Below, piece after piece: positions 8,014 to 33,870 of a stretch of 64,000 nt of DNA. Below the pieces are notes generated by a model. That model was not told where the DNA came from. It did not search any database and saw nothing but the letters and a program-made list of their open reading frames with translations. Both the position numbers and the translations under genes were made by a program. Numbering within the stretch: position 1 is the stretch's first letter; every line of letters begins with the position of its first letter. Where the stretch lies: assembly GCA_023701285.1 (NCBI GenBank), contig JAMPXH010000005.1, positions 2,240 to 66,239 of the forward strand, written 5' to 3'. The stretch comes from Candidatus Didemnitutus sp. GTDB taxonomy: Bacteria > Verrucomicrobiota > Verrucomicrobiia > Opitutales > Opitutaceae.

Positions 8014-8123
8014 CATGCAGTTGGACGCGATTCCCGACTGATGAGCTCCTGACAATGGGGTGGTCGCCGCTGTCCCAGCGGCGACAGGCGTCGGTAGGGA
8101 CACCGACGCCCGCCACCTGCATG
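8014..8123. ncRNA. Candidate structured RNA or repeat element (multi-stem, complementary hairpin loops); family unassigned
   Basis: Closing stem 8014-8024/8113-8123, perfect hairpins at 8063-8085 and 8087-8110, and loop-region sequences TGTCCC and GGGACA that are complementary. Confidence 0.4.
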
Positions 8124-16305: not shown

Positions 16306-17259
16306 GTGGAACTGAGACACCTGCGTTATTTTGCCGCCGTGGCGGACACGCTGAATTTCCGCGCGGCCGCGGAACGGCTGCATCTTTCGACGCCGGCGCT
16401 GAGCAAGCAGATCAAGAATCTGGAGGAGGAACTCGGTGTCGGCCTGCTCGAACGCACGACCACCCACGTGCGGATGACCCCGGCGGGTGCGGTGTTCCTC
16501 GGCGAGGCGCGACACATCCTCGAACAGGCGGAGCGGGCGATGCAACTGGCCCGCGCGGCGGCCAAGGGCGAGCGCGGCCGGTTGTCCGTCGGCAACATGG
16601 GCCCGCTCACCGCGAGTTTCATGGCCGCGTGCCTCACCGCGTATTGCACGCGCTACCCGGATGTGGAGGTGAACCTCATCGACCTGGACCTGCCGTCGCA
16701 GCTCCAAGCGCTGCAACGGCGCGAGATCGATGTCGGTTTCGTGCCCGCCCGGTTGGTGCCGGATCTGCCGGAGGGCTTCAACCACCTCGCCGTGCTCACG
16801 ACGCCGCTGGCGGCGGTCGTCTCCGCCCAGCATCCGCTGGCCGCCGAGCGGGTCATCAGTTTCACCCAGCTGGCGCGCGAACGTCTGCTGTGCATCAGCG
16901 GCGGCGCCACGCCGATCACGCATCGCGGCTACATCACCGAGCTCATGCGCAGCCGCGGACTGAAGCCCGCGCGCATCGTCGAGGTGCAAGGCTATGAATC
17001 CCTCCTGGCCATGGTGGCGGGCGGGCAGGGCGTCTCCATCATCGGCGGTCGCTCCGGCCTGCTCCACGTCGAGGGCATCGCCATCCGCCCGCTCAAGGAG
17101 ACCGGCGAGGACACGCTGCTGGAATTGCACGCCGTGTGGCGGCCGGACACGGGCGGGCGCATGGCAGAGAACTTCATCACCGAATTCCGCCGCGTGTCGC
17201 ACGCCCGGCAGGAAGCCGCTCCGACCGCTTCTGCCGCGCGCCGGCGCACGAAAGGCTGA
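16306..17259 (+). CDS. LysR-family transcriptional regulator
   Basis: MELRHLRYFAAVADTLNFRAAAERLHLSTPALSKQIKNLEEELG HTH followed by a substrate-binding domain. Confidence 0.95.
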   Translation: MELRHLRYFAAVADTLNFRAAAERLHLSTPALSKQIKNLEEELGVGLLERTTTHVRMTPAGAVFLGEARHILEQAERAMQLARAAAKGERGRLSVGNMGPLTASFMAACLTAYCTRYPDVEVNLIDLDLPSQLQALQRREIDVGFVPARLVPDLPEGFNHLAVLTTPLAAVVSAQHPLAAERVISFTQLARERLLCISGGATPITHRGYITELMRSRGLKPARIVEVQGYESLLAMVAGGQGVSIIGGRSGLLHVEGIAIRPLKETGEDTLLELHAVWRPDTGGRMAENFITEFRRVSHARQEAAPTASAARRRTKG

Positions 17260-17262
17260 CTG

Positions 17263-18651
17263 ATGGAGCCCTCGCATTCCGACCTTGGCCGCCGGCGCCA
17301 GCGCGAAATCTATGTCGCGGGGGTGGGCGGACGCCGTCCGGCGGTGCCGGTGGCCGCCGCTGAGTTGGAGGCCGCGGCCCGGCAGGCGATGGCGCCCGAA
17401 GCCTTCGCTTACGTGGCCGGCGGCGCCGGACGCGAGACGACGATGGAGGCCAACCGCGCGGCGTTCGATCGCTGGAAGATCGTCCCGCGCGTCCTGCGCG
17501 ATGTCGAACAGCGGGACCTGACGATCGAGCTGTTCGGCCAGTCCCTGCCGTCGCCGCTGTTGCTTGCGCCGATCGGCGTGCTGGAGATGGCGCATCGCGA
17601 TGCCGATCTCGCGGTCGCCCGGGCGGCGGTGGCTCTGCGCGTGCCGTTCATCTTTTCCAACCAGGCTTCGGTGCCGATGGAGGCTTGCGCTGCTGCGATG
17701 GGTGAGGCGCCGCGCTGGTTCCAACTCTACTGGAGCCGCTCCGACGAAGTCGTCGCGAGTTTCGCGCGCCGTGCGGAGGCCTGCGGTTGCGGCGCGATCG
17801 TGCTGACGCTCGACACGACGATGCTCGGCTGGCGTCCGCGCGACCTGGATCTGGGTTACCTGCCGTTCCTGCGCGGGCTGGGCATCGCGCAATACACCAG
17901 CGATCCGGTGTTCATGCGCGAGGTGCGCGCGCTGTGTGCGGCGGAGTCGGGTAGGGCGAGTTCTCCGAACGAGCCGGCATCCGGTTCGCAGCGAGGGACG
18001 GCTCGTTCGGAGAACTCGCCCTACCCAGGGAACTCGCCTTACCCGGAGAACTCGCCGCACCCGGAGGCTCGGCCGCCTCTTTCATGGCAGACGATCGCGG
18101 CCGCACTGGCGCAAAAGGCGAATTTTCCCGGCGGGCTGTGGCGCAACCTCGGCTCAGGCGAGCCGCGTGCGGCCGTGCAGCGGTTCGTCGGCACGTATTC
18201 GCGTCCGTCGCTGCGTTGGGAGGATGTGAAATTTCTCCGCCGGCACACGAAGCTGCCGATCTTGCTCAAGGGCGTGTTGCACCCTGACGACGCGCGTCTC
18301 GCGGCCCAACTCGGGCTCGACGGTCTCATCGTCTCGAATCACGGCGGCCGGCAGATCGATGGCGGGATCGCGGCGCTGGACGCGTTGCCCGCCATCGTCG
18401 ACGCCGTGGGCGGGCGCATGCCGGTGCTGTTCGACAGCGGTGTGCGCGGCGGCGCGGATGTGTTCAAGGCGCTCGCGCTCGGCGCGACGGCGGTGTGCTT
18501 GGGGCGCCCCTACGTTTACGGCCTCGCGCTCGCCGGCGAAGTGGGCGTGCGCGAAGTGATGTCGAACGTGCTGGCGGAATTCGACCTCACGATGGGCCTG
18601 GCGGGCTGCACGAGCATGGCAGAAGTTAAGCGCGAGGCGCTCGCCGGTTAG
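17263..18651 (+). CDS. FMN-dependent alpha-hydroxy acid oxidase (lactate 2-monooxygenase-like) with in-frame repeat insertion
   Basis: APIGV, WFQLY, LTLDT, LLKG, SNHGGRQ (catalytic His/Arg), DSGVRGG and GRPY motifs. Confidence 0.9.
17949..18062. repeat. REP-like palindrome (28-bp perfect arms, 22-bp spacer) plus two degenerate 18-bp tandem copies, inside the CDS
   Basis: GGGTAGGGCGAGTTCTCCGAACGAGCCG (17949-17976) and its exact reverse complement (17999-18026). Then AGGGAACTCGCCTTACCC and GGAGAACTCGCCGCACCC. Total 114 bp = 38 codons. Confidence 0.88.
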
Positions 18652-21600
18652 CGGCGGCGCGTCCGGCGCCAGCCAGCCAGGGCGAGAGCGGCGAGGCCGA
18701 GCAGCGCGGCGTAGGTGGACGGTTCGGGAATCGCGGTGAACACGAGATCGACGTTCTGGCCGTTTTGCGCAACGGACCATGTGCCGCCGTTGAGCGCGTT
18801 GGTGAAGCCGCTCGCGTTGATCGCGAAATAACTGGAGTTGAAGCCCGTGATGCCGCCGCTGGCACTGGCGATGGTGAAACTGTAGTTTTCCGCGGGGTTA
18901 AAGTTCGCGGCGAAGCCGGCGGTGTTGGCGAGGGTCAGCGACACGAGTTGGAGCGTGAATTTGCTTTCGGCGGTGGCCGTGAGCGACAGGACTCCGTTGA
19001 TGTTGGCGAAATCCCAACCGGGATCACTGCCGGCGCTGCCGGTGGCGTCGTTGATTTCCCAAAGATAATTGCCGCCGCCGGCCCAGGTCGTGTTGCCGGA
19101 GTGGAGCGTGCCCGGCGAGTTGCCCGGCGCAAACGTGCCGCCGTTCGCGATGGTGAGCGCGCCGGTGGTGCCCGTGCCGCTGAGCGTGCCGCCGGCGACG
19201 GTGAACGCGCTGTTGGCCACGGTGCCCGTGAGCTTGAGTTCGCCGCCAGTGACCTCGGTTTCGCCGGAGTAGGTGTGGGTGCCGCCGAGGGCGAGAACGC
19301 CGGTGCCCGTTTTCACGAGGCCGCCGTCGCCGGCGATCGAACCGGTGAAGTTGGAGTCGGTGTTCTGCGCGACGGTGAGGCTGGCTTGGTTGAGGGCGAC
19401 GTTGCCTGAGCCTTCCAAGCGGCCGACAGTGGCGGAGTGCTCGGCGACTTCGAGCGTGGCATCCGCCGCGATGTTCACAGGTGCGCTGTGGGGAAGGGCG
19501 CCGGCCGCGGCGAGGCGGAGCGTGCCTTGCGAGAGTGTGACTCCGCCGGAAAACGTATTCGCATTGCCCAGGATGAGCATGCCCGGACCGTCGAGCACGA
19601 GGCCGCCGGCGCCGGAGAGTTGTCCGGTGAATGTGTTTGTGCCCGTGGGCGCGACGGCGAGTCCGGCCGAGCCGGTGTCGAGGGCGCCGTCGCCGCTGAG
19701 GCCGCCGAGCGCGAGCGCGAAGCCGTTGGCGTCGAAATTCGCGCCGGACGCAACGTGCAGCGTGGTGTGCGGGCTGAGCGCGTCGGCGATGCCAAGTCGC
19801 AGCGTGCCGGCGTTGACGAAGGTGTCGCCGGCGTAGGTGTTCGTGCCGCCGAGAATGAGCGTGCCGGCGCCGAGTTTGGTGAGGTGGTTGCCGGCGGCGC
19901 CGGATATGTTCCCGCTCCACGCCAGCGTGACATCGGCCGCTGTCTCGAACGCGCCGCCACCGGCGTTGAGCGTGACGTTGCGCGCCGAGGTGAAGTCCGC
20001 CGTCGCGCGCAGTGCGCCGCCGCCGAATGTGATCGCGCCGCTGGCGTTGCCGAGTGCCGTGTCAGCGGCAATCGCGAGCGTGCCGGCGTTGACGTGGATG
20101 CCGCCGGAAAACGTATTCGCGCCGCCGAGGGCGAGGACGCCGTCGCCGGATTTCGTGAGCGCGCCGACGCCGGCGATGATGCCGTCGTAAGTGAGCGCCT
20201 TGTCCTCGAACGTGCGCAACTCGCCGTGATTGGCGCCGAGCGTGATGCCGCGACGCGCATCGAGGGCGAAGCTCTCGAACGCGGCGAGGGCACCGCCGTT
20301 GAGCACGAGGCGACCCGCGGTGGCGTTGGTCGGCGCGGTGCCGAGCGCGGCGTCGGCGCCGATCGCCAACATGCCTGCTTCCACCGTGGTGACGCCGGTG
20401 AAGGTGTTCGCACCGGTCAGGGTCAACGTGCCGGCGCCGCGCTTCGACAGGTTGCCGGTTTGGGGGATGAATTCGCCGGTGCTGATGTTGGTGGCGCCGC
20501 CGGGGCTGCTGATCACACCGGCGTAGGTGAGATCGTCGCTGCGGTTGAAACGCAGGGTGGGATTGGGACCGGTGAAAATCACGTTGCCGACGATCGAGCC
20601 GGTGGTGCCGCCGTTGCCGATTTGCAGAATCCCGCCTTGGATCGTCGTCGTGCCGGTGTAGGTGTTGGTGCCGGTGAGGCTGATATTGCCCGCGCCTTTG
20701 AAGAAGGCGCCGGTGCCGCTGATGTGGTTGGCCAGAACAAGATTGTTGCCCGACGTCGTCAGCAGGCCGTGATTCACGATGTCGCCGACCACGGTCGCGA
20801 GTGACAGTGTGAGCGTGCCGGACGAGATGAGCGTGCCGCCGGTGTAGGTTTGCGTGCCCGTCAGCGTGAGGGTGCCGCTACCGGTCTTGGTGAGTGAACC
20901 TGCGCCACTGAGCACGCCGGCATTGAGCGTCTTGGCCGCATCAATGGCGAAGGTGGCGCCATCGGCGCCCAGTTCGACCGGGCGCCCCGACAAACTGAAC
21001 GATTCGCTCGCGTGCAACGTGCCGCCGTTCACCAGCAGCGTGGCGGTCGTGTCCAATCCCAGCGCGGACGCCGCGGAGAGGGAAAGCGTGCCGTCCGTAA
21101 TCGCGGTGTTGCCGTAGAATTGCTGGTTCGCCGCCAAGGTGAGCGTGCTTTGGCCGGATTTCGTGAGGTGGCCGTAGCCGTAAATCGTGCCCGTGAATGC
21201 GGTGTCGGCGGCTTGATTGATCGTCAGCGAGGTGACGCGTTCCGTCGTGAAGGTGTTCAGATCGATGCGTCCATCACCGCTCAAGGTGCCGATGGAATTG
21301 ACGGTCTTGCGCAGGTCGAGTCGGGCGCCGGCGTTGATCGTCACGGCATGGGCGGCGGACATCACACCGTCGGCCTGAACCACCACGGTCGCCTGCGGTG
21401 ACGTGTTGTCGCCGGAATCGCTGTTGATCACGACGGGAGCCTGGATCGCGCCGGCGCTCATGAGGCTGGTGGAACCCTCGCCGCCGAACGAAATCGTGCC
21501 GCTGCCACGAAGTTGTCCGAAGAAGCTCTGGTAGCCGTAAACGAAGCCGAAACCTGAGCTGCCGAAATCGAGTGTGCCGGCGCCGGTGAAGCCATTGTAG

Positions 21601-24600
21601 AGATTCAACCGCTCGTGCGGCGTCTCGAGCGTGGCGCCTTGTTCGATGCTCAGCACGCCGAGGCCGCTGAGCGCATCGGCCGAATCAGCGCGCAGCACGC
21701 CGCCCTGCACCGTCAGGACGTTAATCGCATTGTCGGCGTCGATGACGAGCGTGCCCGCGCCGCGTTTGAGAAAATAGCCGGCCGAATCGCCGGGCCCAGC
21801 GGTAATCCGACCGCTCCAAGTCGCGGTGACGCCCTCGACCACGTCGACGCCGCCGTTCCACGTGTAGAGCGGACGCGTGGTGGCGAAGGCTTCCGTCATG
21901 CGCACGAAGGCGCCGTTGGTGAGGTCCACCGCGGCGCCGGTCTCGCCGAGTGCAGCGTCGTGTCCGACCGCGACAGTGGAATTGCTGACGATCGTCTGCG
22001 CGTGGGTGTTGCTGCCGAGCAAGGTCAGCACTCCGCCACCGCTGACGAACAGTCGCCCGTGATCGGTGGTCGCGGGATTCGCGCGGGTGATGGCGGACGC
22101 GAAGGTGATTTCGTTGCCGTTCAGATCGAGGCTGGTATAGCCGCTGGCCAGCGGGGCGAGTCGCGCGGAAATGTCACCCGTGTTGCCCTCGCCCCACCGC
22201 AGGATTCCGTTCACCACGATGTCGCCGGTGCCCAGACTCGCGGCGTCGCCGAATTCAACGGTGCCGTTCACCACGGTGCCGCCGCTGTAGGTGTTGGTGC
22301 CGTTGAGCGTGAACAACCCGTGGTTGAGCGTGAGGCCGCCGGTGCCGGTGATCGGGCCATTGAGGATGACTTCGTTGAACTGGCCGCGCGTGGCGAACGT
22401 GGCGTCGGACGTCAACTCGATCGCCCGGCTCGAGGTGATTCCGTAGGTGATCAAGTTGCCGCCGGCGAACACGAGGTTGGCCGCGCTCGCGCCGAGGGCG
22501 CGATCATCGGAGACGTCGAGCAAGCCGCCCGCGATGCGCCAGGTGCCGGCGAAGGTGTTGCTGATGTTTTCCAGGCTAAGTTCGCCGTCGCCCGTTTTCG
22601 TGATCTCACCGCTGCCGCTCGTGACGCCCCACAATTGCAGGTCGTGGCCCGCTGTCGCGACGTGCAGCGTGCCGCCGTTCGCCGTGACGGCGAGGTTACC
22701 CCAGCGGGAGAACGATGCGTTGGCCTGCAGCGTGCCGCCCGCCAGCGTGAGTCCTGCGCTGGAGCCGCCGATGGCTGCTTCGTTCGCAATCGCGAGGGTG
22801 CCGCCGGCAATCGTCGTGCCGCCACTGTAGGAGTTGCTGCCCGAGAGCGTCAGCACGCCCGCGCCGATCTTGGTCAAACCGCCGTTGCCGCCGACATTTG
22901 TCAGACTGATGTTGTTGCCGTTGCTGTCGATCGAGCCACCGGCCGCCCCGAGCGAGAGGTTGCGCGACGAGAGATCGGCGGTCGAACCGCTCGCCCAGCG
23001 CAGGCCGCCACCGTTGAGCGTGAGGTCGCCGCTGCCGAGATTTGCCAGCGACCCGAACTCGACCAAGCCGCCGGTGACGTGCGTGCCGCCGGCGTAGGTG
23101 TTCGTGCCGGTGAGCGCGAGGATGCCGTCGCCCGCTTTCGTCAGTGCGCCGGTGCCACTGATGGCGCCGGCGAGCGTGACGTCGTTGCCGTTGGTGTGAA
23201 ACGCGCCGCCGCTGGCGCCCAGCGCGTTCAGGCGCGGCGAGACGTCGACGTTCGTGTCCGCGGCCCACTGCACGCCGCCGCCGTTCAGCGTGAGGCTGCC
23301 GGTGCCGAAGTTCGACAGGCTTGCGAACTGAATGAAGCCGCCGGTGGCGGTCGTGCCGCCAGTGAAGGTGTTGACGCCGCTCAACGCGAGAACGCCCGCG
23401 CCGCTCTTCGCCAGCCCGCCGCCGGCGGCGGTGCCGTCGCTGATGACTCCGCTGATGAGCACGGTGCCGGAATTCGCGAGCGCCAGCGTGCCGGCTTGTG
23501 CGGTGTTCGAAAGCAGGACGTTACCGGCCAGCGCCGTCATGCTGGAGTTCGTGACGGTCAACGTGCGCGATGTGGCGCCATCCGTGTCGTGCGTGAAGTT
23601 GCCCGAGAGCGTAAGCGCGGTGTCGCCGCCGATCACGGCTGAGTTCCTCAGCAGCACGGAATTTGCGACACTGACCGGCGAACCGGTGGCGCGGAGCTCG
23701 CCGCCTTCGATGCGCAGGCCGCCCGTGCCGAGCGCGTGCGCGTGGCCGAGCGCGAGGATGCCGGCCTGCAGCGTCGTGCCGCCGGAGTAGGTGTTGTTGC
23801 CCGAGAGCGCGAGCGTGCCGGCGCCGGTTTTCACCAGTGCGCCGTTCGTGCTCGTGCCGCCGTTTTCGACGACGCCGGTGAATGCGATCTGGCCGCTGCC
23901 GGCGATGGTGAACGTGCGTGACGTGGCGGAGTCGGACAACTGCGCGCCGCCGAAGCTGAGCGAGGCGATGTTGGCGAAGTTCAGCGTCACGTCGCTGCCG
24001 GACTGGTTGAGCAACTGGCCGGTGAACGTCAGGTCCGACGTGCCGCCGAAACCGATGGAGGGCGAACTGATCGCGACGGCGTTGGTCAGCGTGCGCGCCG
24101 AGCCGTTGCCCTGCAGCGTGCCGCCCGCGAGGTGCAGCGTGCCGGTGCCGAACGCGCCGTCGCTGCCGGCCACGAGCGTGCCGGATTCGAGTCGCGTGTC
24201 GCCGGCGTAGGTGTTGTTGCCCGAGAGCGTCAGCGTGTGCGTGCCGGTCTTGGTCAGGGTGGCGTTGGCGTTCGTGCCGGAGATGTCGCCGATGAAGTTC
24301 AGGTCTTTCGTGCCGCCGATGGCGGCATTGCCGGAGAGCGTCACGCGATTGTAGACGGTGTTCAACGTGCCGGCGCCGCGCAGCTCGCCGCCGGCGAGGT
24401 CGATGAACGTGTTGCCGAACGCGTAGACGTTCGTGCCGATCAGCACGCCGTCCTCGAGCCGCATGCCGTAGTGGAAATTTTCGCCGCTCAGCGTGAGCGT
24501 GCCGCTGCCGACCTTGATCAGACCGAATCCGCGTTGGCCGTCCGCGACGACGCCGGAAAGCGTGAGATTCTCCGCGCCGCCGACGCGCAGATTGCCGTCG

Positions 24601-27600
24601 AGCCAGATGTTGCCGGCGTGACTGCGCGCCGCGCCGGCGGCGAGCAACGCGCCGCCCGCGGCGACGAGGCGGTTGTCGTTGAGCGCGCGATCGCTGGCGA
24701 GGGCCAGCGTGCCGTCGAGCAAGCGGACGTCGCCGGTGAAGGTGTTGGTGCCGGTGAGCGTCAGCGTGCCGGCGCCGGCTTTCGTGAACGCTGCGCCGTT
24801 GGCGAGCGTGCCGGTGAAGTTGGTCGAGAGCTGCACGTCGTTGCCGTTCGTGTCGAACGTCGCGCCGGCGGCGATTTCTCCGCCGAGCCGCGAAGAGACA
24901 TCGGTGGTGGTCCCGCTGGCCCAGCGCAGCCCGCCACCTTGCAGGCCGATGTTGCCCGAGCCGAGATTGGCGAGGGAGCCGAACTCCACCAAGCCGCCGT
25001 AGGCCAGCAGGCCATTGAAGGAGTTGTTGCCGGTCAACACGAGCGTGTTCGCGTCGCGTTTCAGCAGGATGCCGGCGCCGGCGATGTCGCCCGAGAGCGT
25101 GAGCTGAGTCGTGCCGCCGATGTCGGTGTGGTTGGTGAACGTGAGGTCGTTGGCGATGGTGCGGCCACCGGTGCCGCCCGCGTGCAAGTCGCCGCCGTTG
25201 AAGTTCACGGCGCCGGTGCCGAAGGCGCTGTCGTGCGCGACGGTCACGACGCCCAACGACACGGCGGTGCCGCCGGAGTAGGTGTTAGCGCCGGAGAGCG
25301 TGAGATCGCCTTCGCCGTTTTTCGTGAGCGCACCGGTGCCGGAAATTTCTCCGCTGAGCGCGAGATCGGTCGTCGTCGTGAGCGTGGTGCTGGCGTTGAG
25401 TTCGACGTTGTTCGCCACGGCGTGGCTGCCGTGGTTGGAGCGCAAGGTGCCGCCGTCGACCACGAGCGTGCCGGTGCCGAGCGCGTCGCTGTGGCCGATG
25501 ACGAGTTGGCCGCCGCTGACGGTGGTGTTGCCGGTGTAGGTGTTGGCACCGGAGAGCGTGAGCGCGCCTGAGCCGGTTTTGACGATGCCGGCCGCAGTGG
25601 CTTCGATCGGCGCGATGTTGCCGGCGAGCGTGACGTTGGAAGAGCCGGAAACGGCGAGGTTCGTGCCGAGTCCGATCGCGTTTTGCAAGGTGCGGTCGCC
25701 GCTGGTTTGGAACGTGCCGCCCTCGATGCGCAGCGTGCCGGTGCCGAGTGCGTTGTCGTGCGCGGCAACGAGCGTGCCGTCCGTGAGCGTGACTCCGCCG
25801 TCGAAGGCGTTGTCGCCGCTCAAAGTGAGGGAGCCCGCGCCGCTCTTGGTCAGACCGTAACTGGCGCCGAAACCGTCGGTGATCGCGCCGGAGAGCACGG
25901 CGCCGCTCGCGCCTACGCTCAGCGTGGAATTGCTCGACAGCGCGGTGGCGCCCGAGAGGGTCAATAAATGCGAGCCGGCGAGCGTGACGTCGCCATCGAG
26001 CGCGACCGTGTTCGCCAGCGTGCGCGGCGCGATGCTCGTGGCGAGCGTGCCGTTGCGCAAAGTGAGTTGTCCGCTGCCGAGTGCGGAATCATGCGCGAGC
26101 ACGAGGGTGCCGCTGCTCAGCGTAGTGCCGCCGGTGTAGGTGTTGTTCGCCGTGAGCGTGAGCGAGCCGCTGCCGGATTTCTCGAGTCGGCCCGCGACGC
26201 CGGTGATCGTGCCGCTGTAAGTGGTGGTGGCGTTGCCGCTGATTTCGAGTTCGCCGCTGGAGAGCGCGATCGTGCCGCCGCCGGTGAGGGAATGGATGTT
26301 CTGCGTCGTGCCGATGAGTTTAAGCGTCGCGTTTTGCCCGAGGGAAACGGCGGAGGCTTCGGGCAAAACGTAGTTCGTGCCGAGTTCCAGGGTGCCATTG
26401 GCCAGGGAGGTCGCGCCGGTGTAAGTGTGCTGATTTCCCAGACGAAGCTCAGCGGAGCCGGTTTTCGTGAAGCCGCCGGTGCCGGAGATGACGCCGTTGA
26501 AAATGTTGTTGGTGAAATCCTCGAGCGTGAGCGTCGCATCGCCGAGGAGGATGCGCGTCGTGCTGAAGTCGCTGGCGAGCTGCGCGAAGGTGGTCGAGTG
26601 GCCGTTGAGATCAAGAGCACCATCGTAGTTTAATGTCAGCGACGATTGGGGCAAAATGTTCGCGGCGCCGAGGCGCAGCGTGCCGCCGCTCACGATGGTC
26701 GACGTGAAGCTGCTGGTGGCGTTCGTGAGCGTGAGCGTGCCATCGCCGACTTTGGTGAAACTGGAGTTCGTCAGGATGCGTCCGTCGAACGTGCTGCTCG
26801 CGCCGCCCGCGCCGACCGAAACGGGTGCATCGATCACGCTGAAAATGCCGCTGCCGCTGAGCGCGCCGATGGTCGCGGAGGTCATGAAGACGTCGAACGT
26901 CGCGCCACTCGCGAGGTGCACGCCGCCGGCGGTCACGAGCGGTGCGCCGTAAACGGTCAAGGTGCCTTGCTGGACGTCGAAGCTGCCGCTGTGGGCGTTG
27001 GCGGCATTGAGCGAGAGTTGGCCGGAGCCGGTCTTCGTCATCGTGCTCGTGCCGCTGATGCCGTTGCTCAGGAGGACGGTGTGGCCGTTGGTGTCGAACG
27101 TGCCGCCGTTGGCGCCGAGCGCGATGCGCGTGCCGGGCGTGCCGTTGCCTCCGCTCCAGCGCAGGCCGCCGCCGTCGAGCGTGAGTAGACCGCTGCCGAG
27201 ATTGGCGGCGGTGGCGATCTGAAGAAAACCTTCCGTGATGGTGGTGCTGCCGAGGAACGCGTTCGTGCCGCTGAGCGTGAGCGTGCCACTGCCGCTCTTG
27301 AGCAGCGTGCTGCTGGTGCTGTTGCCGGTGAGGTTGCCGAGTGTCACCGCGCCGCTGTTCACGAGGCTGAGCGAGCGGTTGAGTTCGTGCGGCAACAGGA
27401 CGTGGCTGAAGGTGGTCGAGCCCGCGTTGCTGACGGTCAACGTGGGGTTGTCGGCATCGACGCGCAGGTGCGCGATCGTGAGGGCCGCGTTGCCGGTGAT
27501 CGCGGTGTCTCCGGCGAGCGAGACCGTGCCGGAGGCGTTTTGCGCCGTGCGCGCTTCGAGCGTGCCGGCGTGCATCGTCAGCGTCCCGGAGCCGAGGGCG

Positions 27601-30600
27601 GTATCGCTCGCGAGTGTGACGCTGCCTGCATGGACGTGCGTGCCGGCGTGCGCGCCGGTGCCCGCCAGCGTGAGCGTGCCGCTGCCGAGTTTGATCAACT
27701 CTCCATTTGAAGACGCCGTGCCGCCGACGGTAACGTTGTGGGTGTGGTTCAGCGTGACGCTGCGTTGGGTGTTCGTCGGATCGACTTGGAGCAACGCGAA
27801 AGTGGTGTTGCCGGTGTTTGCGATGGTGAGCACGGCGTCGCCGCCGGTGTGGTTCGTCACTGTGCCGCCGAACGTGAGCGCGGAGTTGCCGCCGATGGTT
27901 GTGTTGGTCGTCACCGAAACGGCATTGGCCAGCGTGCGCTCATTGCCGTCGCCGCGAAGTTCGGCGCCAGCGAGCGTGAGCGTGCCGGTGCCGAAGGCGG
28001 CATTGTGTCCGGCGATGACGGTGCCACCTGCGAGCGTGGCGCCGCCGGAAAAAGTGTTGTTGCCGGAGAAGGTCTGCGTGGCGCCGCCGGATTTGAGGAG
28101 CGTGCCGCTGCCGCTGATGTTGCCCGTGTAGGTGGCGTTGCCGGTGTCTCCGTTCAGGGTCAGCTGCGTGTTCGGTCCGTGGAGGGCGATGATGCCGTTG
28201 CCCGTCAAGCGGCCCGCGGTGAGGCTGCTGGTGTTGGTGGCGTCGGCTTCCCCCAGTTCAAGCGTGCCGTGATTGGTGAAAAGATCCGCGGTGGAGAACG
28301 TGCCGGTGCTGACGCGCAGGACGCCGGTGGCGGCATTCGTGACGAGATTGGCGAGCGCGTTGGCGCCGTTGGTCGCGTTCACGAATTGCCCGCCGGAGTA
28401 GAGCGTGATCTCCGCGGCGTTCGTGTGGAGGTCCGCTCCGGTGAACGCGAGTGTGCCGGCGACTTCATAGCGGCCGCCGGTCAGCGTGTGGTTCGCGTAG
28501 TTGGTGAACGCGCCTTCGCTCGTGTCGATTTCGAGGCGGGCGCTGGCCTCGGCGCGCAGCAGGCCTTGGTTGGTGAAGCCGCCGGAGTCTGGTTTGATGA
28601 GCAACGTGGAGCCGGGCGCGGTCGCGCGGATCGTGCCGCCGGAGGCGTTGACGAAACTGACGTCCTCGATCGCGCCGGCGCCGCTGATCGTGTTGTCCGT
28701 GTTCGTAAGGGCAACGGTTGCGCCGTTCGCGGCGGTGAGGCGGCCGCTCGCGGCCCAGGTGTGCGTGGTCTCGTCGCCGACGGTCGTGCTCACGCGCCCG
28801 CCGAGTTGGATTTCGCCGCCGCCGGTCAGCGTGGAATTTCCGGTGAACGCGATCGTGCCCGCGTTCGTCGTGCCGGAGGTGCCGACGAAAATATCGCCGG
28901 CGTTCGCGACGTCGCCGCCGACGCGCAGGGTGGCGGCGTTGTCGATCTCGATCACGCCCGCGGCGGCGTTCTGCACGTTGGTGCCGAGCGTGGCGGTGGC
29001 GTTGGCGTCGGTGTGGCGAATGGCGCCTTCGTTCGCGAGCGTGCCGGTGCCGTCGATGATGGCGCCATTCGTGAGCACGATCGAGCCGCCGTTGGTGAAG
29101 ACGGTGCCGCCGCCGAGTTCGAGGCGGGTGGGCACGTTGACGTTGCCGCTGTTGACGAGCGTGAGCGTGGAGCCGAAGCCGGTGGAGGCGGACGTCGTCG
29201 CCGAAAGCGTGGTGTGGCCCGCGGCGATGTTCAACTGGGCGAGCGGGGCGACATCGAACTCGGCGAGCGCGAGCGTGGCATCGTCGAGCGTGAGAGTGCC
29301 GCCGGTGGCGACTTCGACGCGGCCGCCGTTGATGGTGGCGTTGGCGATGAGCATGGCGCCGTGCGACGCGATGCGTCCGGCGGTGGTGCCTTCGAAGTTC
29401 GTCACGGTCACGTCGCGAATCGTGAGCAGGCTCGGCGTGAAGGTGGGCTGCGACAGATCGGGTTCGCCGTTGACGAGCGGGTAGGTGAACGAGCCGTTCG
29501 CGCGAATGACGCCGCTGTTGGTAAGGTTGGCGCCGGAACTGTGGGTGAGGAGCAGGCCGGACGCGCCGAACGATTCGATCAGGCCGCGGTTGATGAGTTT
29601 CGCGCGAAACTCACCGGCGCCGAGCAGCATGTGCGTGGCGGAGTTGATGATCGTGCCGCCGCTGTCGACGAGCTGGTTTGCGGTTGAGTCGGTGAATTGG
29701 ATGCTCCCGGAGCCCGCGAGCGTGAGCGTGCCTTCGGCGCCGAGCTGCGCGCCGGTCGCGCCGCTGTGCTGCAGGAGAATGATGCCGTCGTTGTTGATCG
29801 TGGCGCCGCTTTTCGCGAGCAGCGTCGCGCCGGATTCAACCATCAATCCCGAGTCGTCCGTGAGCGTGAGATTGCCGGTGGATTGGAGCGTGAACGCCTG
29901 GTCGGGCGCGGTCGAAAAGAGCGCGCCGTCGGCGAGAATCAGCGATCCTGCGACGGAGTTCAGCGTGAGGCCGTCGATGCTCGTGTTCGTGCCGGTGCGG
30001 CGGGAGAAGCGCCAGTCGTCGCCGGCGAGCGTGAGCGTGTTGTTCGCGGCGAGCGCGGTGATCGGGGTGCCCTTGTATTCGAGGGTGCCGGCGAGGATAA
30101 GGTTGCCGATGCCGGAGAGCGTGCCGTCGGCGGCGACGTTGGACCAGTTGGAGGCGTCGGCATAGGTGAGCGTGCCGAGCGAACTCAACGTGGCGCCGGG
30201 CCCGATGAGAATGGTGCCGGTGTTGGTGAGCGTGTTGCGGAAGCCCAGCCAGCCGCTCGCGCCGGTGACGGTGATGAGACCGGTGCTGTGATTGGTGAGC
30301 GCTTCGACGCTCTTGAGCACCTGGCTCTGGAGGAAGAGCGAACCACGGTTGATGGCGAGGTAGGTGAGCGCGTCCTGGTTGTGGAACTGATTGTAGAAGG
30401 AGCCGCCAAGCACGTTGAGCGTGGTGCCGGCGCCGATCTCGCGGATGTTCGGGGCGGCGGTTTCACCCGTGCCATAGGCGACGGTGCCGCCGAGATTCCA
30501 CGTGCCGCCGGTGAGCGTGGCGGTGCGCGCGTCGAGGTCGACATTGGAAAAATTGCCGAGCATGCCGTCGACTTCGATGCGGCCGTCGGTCGTGAGATTG

Positions 30601-33008
30601 AGCGTGCCGTGGTTGGTGAACTGGTAGTCGAAGGTCTCGCCCGCGACGGCGAGCGTGCCGGCATCGACGTTGAGCGTGCGGCCCGCAGCGTTGGTGAAGT
30701 TGCCCTGCACGGTGAGTTCCGTCTGTTCACCGTCGATCCACATCGCGCCGTGATTTTGGAAATCTTGTGCGAGCGTCTGACGCGCTCCGCCGGCGAGCGC
30801 GAAGTTGCCGTGATTGCTCGCGAGCGTGGCGAGTGCGTCGGACTGACTGCCGCCGTCGGGCTGCCAATGGCTGATGCGCGGGTTCGAGGAAAAGCCGTCG
30901 AGCACGAGCGTGGTGCCCGCGCCAAGGCTCGTGATGCTGCGGCCGGCGGCGCCGTCCGCGCCTTGGTAAAAAATACTGCCGGAAAGCAGGTAGGTGCCGC
31001 CGAGCAATTCGCCCGTGGTGGAGTTGACGTTGAGGAAACCGTTCGCGGCGGTGAGTTGCAGCACGCCGTTGCCGTTCACGTCGAGCGTGGCGGCGGCGCC
31101 GTTCTGAAACGTCGTGGTCGTCAGCGTGCTGTCGAGCGCGACGGTGCCCTGGTTGGTGAAGGCGCGACCTGTGTTTAGATCGGTGCCGAGGCGCAGGGAG
31201 GCTCCGGCGGCGTTGGCCTCGAGCGTCGCAAGCGCATTGCCGTAAGCGGCGTTGCTGCTCGTGCGATTCTGCAGCGAGCCGGTGACGGTGAGGTTGCCGG
31301 CGTTGGTGACGATGCTGCCGCCGGTGTATTTCATTGTGCCGTGGACTTCGAGCGTGCCGCCGGTGAGTTGGCCGTTGGCGTCGACGTTGGTGAAAGTGCC
31401 GGTCTGCAACAGCGCGCCGGTGCCGACCTGGATGTAGCCGTCGTTGGTGAGGCCGGGCGTGCTGAGCTGGTTGGCGTTCTGACCGGTGCCGTTGGCGAGA
31501 ACGAGGGCGCCGCTCGGCGTGACGGTGAGGTGAACTTCGTTGTTGTAGAGACCGCCGTCGGAGAGCCGCAGTTGCCCGGCGAGCGAGGAGGTCGCGAACT
31601 GTCCGACGAGTCCCGGCAAATCGAGAACTTGGTTGGCCTCCAGGTTGCCGACGGTGGGGGCGACGTTCGTCACGCTGCGGCCGATGTAGGTCTGGTTCAG
31701 CGTGGTGTCGGTGATCGTGTGGTTGTTGGAATGAAGAATATTGTAGATCGAGGGCGTGGTGTTCGTCTCTTCGAAGAGCGGGCCGAACGTCACGCTGCCG
31801 AGTCCGCGCAGGGCGAACGCGGCCTTCAGCGCCTCGACCGTGGCGAAGCCGTTCACGAGGAGGCCGAGCTGGTTCTCGAGCTGGGTGGTGAGGAAGAACT
31901 CCGGATAGATCGCGACGTCGCCTTCGGGCTTCGTGAAGGAGATCGGCTGCGAGAGGTCGGTGACGACGAGGCGATTCGTTTCGACGGTGGTGCCGTTGGG
32001 CAAATGGTAGGTCAGCGGGATGCTCGAGCGCAGGATGACGCCGAGGGTGGGGTCGAGTTCGAGTTCCTGCCTGAGCCCGAAGTTCACGCCGATGGCGGTG
32101 CGCAGGAGCATCAGCTCGACGTTGGCGATGCCGGCGACGCTCAGGCGGAGATCGAGCGGGTTGGCGGGCAAGTTGGCTTTCGCCGCGGCGAGACCCGCGA
32201 GGTCGATGCCGAGTCCGAGCAGGCGTTCCTGCTCGGCGGTGATCGCGAGCGAGGAGCCCGAGGTGCCGGCGAGATGCGGCGCCTCGACGGTGATGGTGCC
32301 CACGCGTTTCTGCCACGGATAGACGACGCCGAGAGGACTCGACGGCGTGCGCAGGGAGTGGGTGAAGCCGTTCGTGAAGTCGGCCACCGGCGAGCCGAAG
32401 ATCGAGAGGGTGTTTGCGGCAAACGAGGCGATCGGGATCGTTGTGTCGGTGTTGATGATCTCGAGGCTGCCGCCGAAGCGCTTGAAGATCGCGGCCTCGA
32501 CGCCGACCGTTGCCTGCACGCGCAGCTTGGCGTTGATGTCGAAACCGCCGGAGGCAAAGGTCGACTCCATGTAGGACGAGCCGGGCGTCGGCGCGAGCAA
32601 CTGGTGTTGGATGTTGAGCGAATGCTGGCCCGCCGCGCTGATATTGTCCGGAGCCGTAATGGTCACCTGGTAGGGCAGCGAAACATTCACGTGTCCGGTG
32701 TCGCCAAAGACGTTGATGTTGATGCCGACCTCGCCGCTGGTGGAGCCGTAGACGCGCGCGCCCCAATCGCCGGTCCACGTCGTGTCGATGCTGCCGCTCG
32801 AGCCGCTCTCATTCCACGTGGCGCTGTAGGAATACGTGCTGCTGCCGAAGCTGCCGCCGTTGCCCCACATGTTCACGCCGGTGGCGCTGAAGGTTGGCGT
32901 ATAGGTCACTGCGGTTTGCGCGCGCGCCCATGGCGCTGAACAAAGTGCGAGCACCAAAACGCACGCGAGGAGGCGGGAGGGCGGGAGCTCCCGAGGGGTC
33001 GTGTCCAT
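18648..33008 (-). CDS. Giant (~4,786 aa) PEP-CTERM surface protein with ~30 autotransporter-associated beta-strand repeats
   Basis: Start [10 protein letters not shown] with a signal peptide ending ...WARAQ, repeated LTKxGxGTLTLxGxNTYxGxT units (about 30 counted by eye), and C-terminal [27 protein letters not shown]. There is no autotransporter beta-barrel. Confidence 0.93.
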
Positions 33009-33050
33009 GCCGCTAGTTTGCGATAGGAGTATCCGCCGCACGACGGAGCG

Positions 33051-33080
33051 GTGACGAGCTACGCACGCTTTGTGACGAGC
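33051..33080 (-). promoter_or_regulatory. Candidate LytTR operator: 9-bp perfect direct repeat with 12-bp spacer
   Basis: GTGACGAGC at 33051-33059 and 33072-33080 (GCTCGTCAC on the minus strand), 43-72 bp upstream of the giant gene ATG and just downstream of the LytTR gene. Confidence 0.7.
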
Positions 33081-33126
33081 GACGCCGTCATGCTGTAAAA
33101 TCCGAGGATTTCGGCCAAACTTCGGC

Positions 33127-33870
33127 TCAGTTCGGCAGGGGCGGGCCGAGATGCGCGCGCAACTCAGGCAAGTGATTGCGACTGACCGGCACGGGCTCGC
33201 GGACGCCGGCGACGCGCAATTCGGCGGTCTCGCGTGTGTCGCGGCGATGGCTTTCGATCGCCGCCAGGTTGACGAGCGCCTGTCGATGCGCGCGCTTGAA
33301 ATGCTCGGGCGGCAGGGCGTCTTCCCAACTCTTGAGCGTGCGGCGCGTGAGCAATCGCTCGCCATTGCGCAGCAGCACGTCGGAATAATTTTCGTTGGAA
33401 AAAATCGCGCTGATCTGTGCGAGCGGCACGAAGCGGTCGCCGGCGTCGGTGCGCACGAGCACGGTGTCGTCGCCGCACCACGCGGGCGGAGGAGCGCTCG
33501 CCGCGCTCAGTGCACCCGGCGCGGCGGTGAGCTTTGCCAGCGCGGCCGCGAAACGAGCGGTTGCGACCGGCTTCAACAGGTAATCGAGCGCGTTGACCTC
33601 AAAGGCGCGCAGCGCGAAGCGATCGTAGGCGGTGACAAAAATGATCCGCGCGCCCGGAGCGACGTGAGGCACCAATTCGAAGCCATTGCCGCCGACGAGC
33701 TGCACGTCGAGGAACACGAGATCGTAATCCGCGGTGGCGAGCCGCGCGCGGGCCCGGGCGAAAGTGGCGGCCTCGCCGACGACCGTGTAGCCCGCGTGAG
33801 CAGACAGGAGCCAGCGCAGCTCGTCGCGGGCGGCGGATTCATCGTCGATGAGAAGCGTGCGCGTCGTCAT
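33127..33870 (-). CDS. LytTR-family response regulator
   Basis: REC domain (IDDE, FLDVQ, TAYD, YLLKP) plus a LytTR domain (LLTRRTLKSWE...FKRAHRQALVN). Confidence 0.95.
   Translation of the reverse strand: MTTRTLLIDDESAARDELRWLLSAHAGYTVVGEAATFARARARLATADYDLVFLDVQLVGGNGFELVPHVAPGARIIFVTAYDRFALRAFEVNALDYLLKPVATARFAAALAKLTAAPGALSAASAPPPAWCGDDTVLVRTDAGDRFVPLAQISAIFSNENYSDVLLRNGERLLTRRTLKSWEDALPPEHFKRAHRQALVNLAAIESHRRDTRETAELRVAGVREPVPVSRNHLPELRAHLGPPLPN

Follow-up and report, generated by a model that had tools for sequence, protein, structure and literature searches.

The locus studied here raises the question of how a palindromic repeat came to stand in frame inside the gene of a catalytic enzyme, and whether it is kept there as protein, as nucleic acid or as a passenger that the gene tolerates. 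The window, which is the whole stretch of 64,000 nucleotides that was analysed, corresponds to C61:2240-66239 of the studied assembly (G000; 4.02 Mb, 220 contigs, 67.7% G+C), where genes were called from ORF length, GC3 and matches to families. An inverted-repeat search recovered two arms of 28 nt each (17949-17976 and 17999-18026), which are 100% complementary and 22 nt apart, so that the doublet spans 78 nt, or 26 codons (17949-18026), as the preliminary description of this DNA had claimed. The 28-mer has no other occurrence within the window, and a match was obtained in 0 of 100 shuffles. The two 18-nt copies of its 3' end that had been reported were also recovered, as an 18-nt period over 18008-18066 (3.3 copies, 82% matches, TRF), and these units derive from the foot and the 5' half-stem of the right REP. 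With them the element reaches 114 nt and the frame is kept, since it takes up codons 230-267 of the ORF 17263..18651 (+), at 17950-18063, and codes for 38 aa. Each arm carries a GTAG foot and a hairpin, that of the left REP being GGC-GA-GTTC-TCC-GAAC-GA-GCC with a 2x2 GA/GA internal loop; each arm is thus a GTAG-type REP and the inverted pair a REPIN, which bears out the REP-like palindrome proposed earlier. The components are listed in Table 1, together with the other coding copies of the assembly.

Table 1. Features of the window around the repeat (window coordinates) and proteins of the studied assembly that contain REP-derived sequence
Feature	Coordinates	Strand	Remarks
Putative LysR-type regulator gene, upstream of the enzyme gene, 3-nt gap	16306..17259	+	ORF list
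Host gene, FMN-dependent alpha-hydroxy acid oxidising enzyme, lactate-2-monooxygenase-like, 462 aa	17263..18651	+	PF01070
Left REP, GGTAGGGCGAGTTCTCCGAACGAGCCG	17950..17976	+	GTAG foot; encodes GRASSPNEP
REPIN spacer, 22 nt	17977..17998	+	encodes ASGSQRG(T)
Right REP, the left-REP 27-mer inverted	17999..18025	-	encodes (T)ARSENSPYP
Two degenerate 18-nt tandem copies of the right-REP head end	18027..18062	+	12 aa encoded
LMO-like enzyme (studied)			GRASSPNEP...ENSPHP
HrpA site 1			TIGR01967, 1195 bits; 26-aa REP-derived peptide
HrpA site 2			26-aa REP-derived peptide
AlaS			TIGR00344, 715 bits; 10-aa REP-derived peptide
Rhamnulokinase-like protein			in-frame REPIN
YceH-like protein			in-frame REPIN
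YyaL-like protein			in-frame single REP
Mfd N-terminus			in-frame REP at contig end

The arms belong to a repeat family that is dispersed through the genome, and the expectation that the 28-mer would be found in many copies was borne out by the genome search. The 27-mer GGTAGGGCGAGTTCTCCGAACGAGCCG gave 41 matches at five mismatches or fewer, and the generic form GGTAGGGCGA-N10-14-GAGCC, with exact head and tail, was found in 43 copies against 0 for the reversed control pattern. The GTTC/GAAC master, which is the same variant as in the enzyme gene, contributed 23 of the 43. We put the copy number in this 4.0-Mb MAG at about 35-43, and because contigs break at the repeat the true numbers are under-counted. 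At least 10 REP matches lie within ~60 nt of contig ends, and the family is a main cause of the fragmentation of this assembly. Contigs C6, C10, C66, C69, C85, C120, C140, C178, C194 and C216 end in or beside a REP, as C89 does at its start; at the end of C194 a poly-C run follows the REP directly and resembles an assembler or sequencing artefact. Six loci of the genome have arms paired at a distance of 12-23 nt. Ten other genomes of the genus hold 11-142 REP copies each, and inverted REP dimers are many in four congeners (G007, G009, G021 and G024).

The family has a common architecture, namely a GGTAG foot followed by GGC-GA-NNNN-TCC(C)-N'N'N'N'-GA-GCC with the 2x2 GA/GA internal loop, and five variants gave an identical predicted fold. 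In a hand-compiled set of 33 distinct 26-nt variants, mismatched ones included, 94.8% of cells were paired and double changes were observed at all four of the four variable stem pairs, values that 0 of 500 shuffles reached. Many stem subfamilies of this one architecture co-exist in the congeners, with the tandem GA/GA internal loop invariant. An intergenic REPIN of the same family, placed directly after a TAA stop (C113:8413-8540), is continued by 3.8 tandem copies of a 16-nt unit from its head end, an array that parallels the in-gene 18-nt one; because the two arrays are comparable, tandem growth of a REP end is not peculiar to the enzyme gene. Again, at 8059-8114 of the window two other repeat families abut, GGTGGTCGCCGCTGTCCCAGCGGCGACAGGCGTCGG and then GGTAGGGACACCGACGCCC, whose 14-mers and 12-mers occur ~40 and ~51 times in the genome, and several REP-like families are therefore present in it.

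The proposed association of the repeat with RAYT genes stands in the congeners. In G009 the REPs on the two sides of a RAYT gene (C5:84584-84961; NF047646, 89.8 bits) are exact, mutually inverted copies of the window's 27-mer, and the RAYT genes on contig C11 of G003 and contig C11 of G012 are flanked by inverted GTCG-variant copies of the studied REP family. For the studied genome itself, a RAYT flanked by the studied REP subfamily was not found in the G000 assembly. A single RAYT of the assembly exceeds the NCBIfam cut-off (C176:7911-8285, 91.5 bits), and it stands between inverted copies of a different REP, GGTGGGGGCGGTTGTCC[A/T]CAACCGCCC. A tblastn search of the assembly with the G009 RAYT found this gene alone, at 50% identity. 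Because the assembly holds no contig below ~2.5 kb and breaks at repeats, a RAYT island of ~0.6 kb could easily be missing from it. The REPs that bracket the C176 gene are GGTGGGGG-headed (L002, 1334-1360 and 1822-1848), and single REPs or remnants with this head are also seen in the enzyme loop (L044, L054 and G018) and at HrpA site 2 (G021). The congeners harbor 1-19 RAYT-like genes per genome, far above the usual one per REPIN family. Additionally, G000 encodes a 330-aa Y1-transposase-like protein (C144:20866-21846, L001) that matches REP_Tyr_transpos at 56-59 bits, below the cut-off; it has a long C-terminal extension and an adjoining low-G+C stretch, with no REPs within 400 nt, and matches of ~330-340 aa like it occur in most genomes of the genus.

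Coding copies are not limited to the enzyme gene. GTAG REPs and REPINs had been described as normally extragenic, but the studied copy and seven other loci out of the 30 loci of the family in G000 are not, being placed in frame in long, high-GC3 ORFs. The other in-frame copies occupy at least seven sites in six unrelated proteins (Table 1). Among these, the HrpA gene (C90:43546-47859; loci L137-L148) carries two 78-nt REPINs. Its site 2 holds this REPIN in G023 as well, is occupied in G021 by two REPs from a different family and is empty in G007, and yet other REPs were noticed at site 1 in G021 and G002.

The host protein matches PF01070 (FMN_dh) over residues 39-460 (E 1.9e-124, 415.7 bits), and its best single-domain PDB sequence matches are 6DVH and 6DVI, the lactate 2-monooxygenase of Mycobacterium smegmatis (MsLMO). 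No equivalog cut-off was reached against NCBIfam, and the name of the enzyme rests on similarity. An AF2 model built from a 75-sequence alignment was used (pLDDT 89.9, pTM 0.90), an earlier model from 16 close sequences (pLDDT 59.6) having been set aside. It shares the fold of MsLMO, with a Foldseek TM of 0.94 (target-normalised) at 38% identity to 6DVI/6DVH. The catalytic residues are conserved between the two enzymes, and the claim that the catalytic motifs around the insert are intact is confirmed by Y156, D184, R191, K336, H360 and R363, which are invariant across the 75 aligned sequences. The gene upstream encodes a product that we take to be a LysR-type regulator, as its N-terminal HTH sequence is typical of that group. 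Downstream, a 4905-aa ORF at 18648-33365 (-) displays many autotransporter-type beta-strand repeats and a PEP-CTERM-like tail, and its stop overlaps that of the enzyme gene in a convergent TTAG.

The alignment to MsLMO breaks at MsLMO residues 226-232, where the window protein has ~70 residues, ~30 of them common to the whole subfamily and 38 REP-derived. This supports the earlier placement, and the insert lies in the beta4-alpha4 'loop 4' lid region, which in MsLMO is a long structured loop, the window enzyme being apparently LMO-like by similarity. The only long low-confidence coil of the AF2 model covers residues ~232-270 (10-residue block means of 50-61) and is flanked by the helices 215-231 and 275-287. 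According to the model, the insert is probably a low-complexity, disordered surface excursion between two lid helices.

The comparison of 73 homologues indicates that the loop is otherwise short. The segment from the beta4 motif to LPxxxKG measures 93-102 aa in ~60 homologues of other phyla, including Gemmatimonadota, Actinomycetota, Bacteroidota and Proteobacteria, and in several Opitutaceae, and it reaches 107-136 aa exclusively where REP heads are present. The 38-aa stretch is thus an insertion relative to the family baseline, which is what the preliminary description had expected an alignment of orthologues to reveal. This genome is not alone in it: REP-derived sequence occurs at the same loop in at least 10 of the 16 genus orthologues, the loop being short in 6 of the 16. 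The genome-wide counts match the presence of the insert: 11-142 copies of the REP family are present in each of the nine genomes whose insert is of family A, G008 holds 2 family-A copies genome-wide, its site being filled by a GGTGG-headed REP pair of a low-copy family, and G013, G017, G015, G006, G001 and G018 hold 0-1 family-A copies each.

The units found in the loop are diverse. The REPIN of G000 recurs at an identical codon in the independent MAG G023 (94% aa identity), there with one 18-nt unit fewer, and in both genomes it is a GTTC homodimer of 78 nt with a 22-nt spacer. Six genomes (G012, G003, G024, G007, G002 and G021) display a 66-nt heterodimer with a 13-nt spacer. The arms of these dimers fall into different stem subfamilies (GTCG, GTTC, ACCG, GGCG/GGTG), and those of G003 and G024 include wobble or mismatch intermediates. 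The spacers of this group differ at 1-3 of 11 positions between species, whereas those of ten genomic REPINs elsewhere with 13-14-nt spacers are unrelated; because of this near-identity, these in-gene copies are considered orthologous by descent, and the view that all in-gene REPINs are independent insertions was rejected for the group. G009 has three REPs in its loop, and L044, L054 and G018 a single GGTGG-type REP or remnant encoding GPLGATAPT. A single origin for all the loop REPs is unlikely, as the homodimer of G000 and G023, the pair of G008 and the single REPs of L044, L054 and G018 are different units, and the loop must therefore have been colonised or re-colonised several times. In the codon tree built from the flanks, a gene tree, the taxa with an insert do not form a single clade, and the history of gain at the loop is either one gain with losses or several gains. 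Conversion of the in-gene arms to the dominant variant of each genome was also considered and is unsupported, the in-gene GTTC arm of G007 being rare in that genome (2 copies).

With reference to these observations, we consider it quite probable that a RAYT-mobilised REPIN entered a permissive lid loop, either as a new insertion or in place of an earlier REP, and that it is a tolerated passenger there. Presence, absence and replacement of the repeat among species is what was seen, and from it we infer mobilisation by a RAYT. A REPIN of this Opitutaceae family, mobilised by an HUH/Y1 RAYT, would have reached the part of the gene that encodes loop 4, and it would have survived as an element of 3n length that is stop-free in this frame; a forward frame that reads GG-TAG would terminate. 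The gene stays open because the length is a multiple of three and no stop falls in this frame. The element would then be read through as a 38-aa disordered surface excursion, presumably translated and perhaps neutral. The two 18-nt units could be later slippage duplications of the 3' head end, and since only periods of 3n would survive inside a gene, 18 nt may be the version that an ORF can tolerate. Constraint, or repeated re-seeding, would act on the nucleic-acid hairpin, and this enzyme loop, like a few loops of other proteins, would be a place at which REPs are time and again kept, exchanged and stacked in the genus.

The hairpin might itself be what is selected. The 28-bp stem would then act on the mRNA, as an RNase III or stability site or as a translational pause, or on the DNA, as a RAYT or gyrase site, with the peptide as a by-product. 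The 136-nt region as RNA has a predicted fold of -88.2 kcal/mol (z = -7.4 against shuffles), and the stem covariation also holds in the coding copies of the congeners. Between G000 and G023 the arms show 0 differences in 56 positions, although the spacer differs at 6 of 21, the flanks at 7.0% and the four-fold sites at 11.7%. Arms conserved beyond four-fold sites are not predicted for a purely neutral passenger, barring conversion or selection at the level of the REP, and their identity fits constraint or conversion on hairpins, not on peptide. However, recent insertion or conversion from other copies would explain the identity as well, and in most congeners the arms belong to different subfamilies and form no long perfect duplex. 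We therefore regard a selected role of the stem in this gene as improbable.

The preliminary description had suggested that the repeat was domesticated as protein sequence. By this account, the REP peptide was recruited to lengthen or loosen loop 4 and so tunes product release, oxidase against monooxygenase, or substrate access. In MsLMO, the length and order of loop 4 are tied to the coupled (monooxygenase) pathway (PMC7039449, discussing 6DVI), the insert is in this loop, and the in-frame retention of REP-derived sequence in at least 10 species, at a lid that matters for function, would be compatible with selection too. Nevertheless, the conservation is that of the DNA hairpin and not of the peptide, which takes several forms among the congeners, GPLGATAPT being one, while the changes compensate each other in the stem of the DNA. 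Unrelated proteins contain these peptides as well, at the seven or more sites listed above, and the insert-free congeners and all other phyla keep every catalytic residue. Since the insert is also predicted to be an unstructured coil, the suggestion was not upheld, and we give recruitment of the peptide to the lid quite a low probability. An assembly or binning artefact, with the repeat wrongly threaded into a gene of a fragmented MAG, is hardly credible and was ruled out: at least 10 of the 220 contigs end inside the studied repeat, and one of them in poly-C after the REP, but the gene continues in one frame on both sides of the repeat, and the independent MAG G023 carries the same REPIN, and eight other species a REP, at the same codon.

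Beyond the origin of this insert as a tolerated REPIN, the turnover at the same codons raises the tentative possibility that a few surface loops of conserved proteins in the genus, such as the LMO-like loop 4 and the two HrpA sites, are long-lived docking sites of REPs, at which families are inserted, stacked and swapped and the hairpins are kept by compensatory substitutions. If this is true, existing REPs or their hairpins would serve as targets of REPs even in coding sequence, and the encoded peptide would be overridden by selection or conversion acting on DNA or RNA. The locus is in any case a clean example of REPs and REPINs, 'extragenic' in the textbooks, that can lie inside essential and catalytic genes and be read through. 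It also offers a natural series of orthologues with no insert, a 22-aa insert and a 38-aa insert in a lid thought to set oxidase against monooxygenase activity. Annotators and enzyme engineers can recognize GRASSPNEP, ARSENSPY and similar low-complexity stretches of Opitutaceae proteins as repeat-derived, and the fragmentation of Opitutaceae MAGs at the studied repeats is explained.

In-frame palindromes of this kind had been ascribed to the Rickettsia palindromic elements (RPE), where coding insertions are indeed known, but they are not restricted to Rickettsia, as GTAG REPs lie in coding sequence in Opitutus terrae as well (PMC3733652). From the description by Ogata et al. 2000, as cited in PMC3733652, RPEs resemble the studied insert in being in-frame palindromes of functional genes that are translated as surface loops and are tolerated, not adaptive. 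This likeness is a functional one; RPE-1 is longer (~100-150 nt), apparently unrelated in sequence and is not known to have a GTAG foot or RAYT association, and its host is obligate intracellular, unlike the studied genome. The REPIN-RAYT systems (Bertels & Rainey 2011, PMC3116915; Nunvar et al. 2010) share with the studied family the inverted REP doublet as unit, a population headed by a master sequence, REPs on both sides of a RAYT gene and vertical persistence in the lineage. Classical REPINs, however, are extragenic, with one RAYT per family, whereas 8 of the 30 loci of the studied family are coding, and the congeners combine up to 19 RAYT-like genes per genome with many stem subfamilies.

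The closest precedent is the study of Di Nocera, De Gregorio and Rocco 2013 (BMC Genomics 14:522; PMC3733652), which reported GTAG-type REPs entirely within ORFs, with dimers encoding 20-30 aa. Such intragenic REPs were most numerous in Opitutus terrae, including an HrpA with two inserts, and different REPs were found at about the same site in Xanthomonas recB orthologues (PMC3733652). Because intragenic GTAG REPs were published in 2013, our insert is a further case of a known phenomenon. The O. terrae intragenic REPs and the studied REP are alike in being GTAG-footed short hairpins, often in inverted dimers, with flanked RAYT genes. The studied family (GGTAGGGCGA-stem-TCC-stem-GAGCC, peptide GRASSPNEP) and its enzyme host are not in the O. 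terrae list, and the supplement of that paper has no FMN, lactate or matching peptide entry, so that both the family and the host gene are absent from it. Going further than the O. terrae study, our data follow one orthologous site through more than 20 species and include turnover of subfamilies as well as an 18-nt tandem expansion. What this appears to add to the published picture, partly by inference from sequence comparison, is a cross-species turnover of REP families at fixed coding sites accompanied by hairpin-preserving substitutions.
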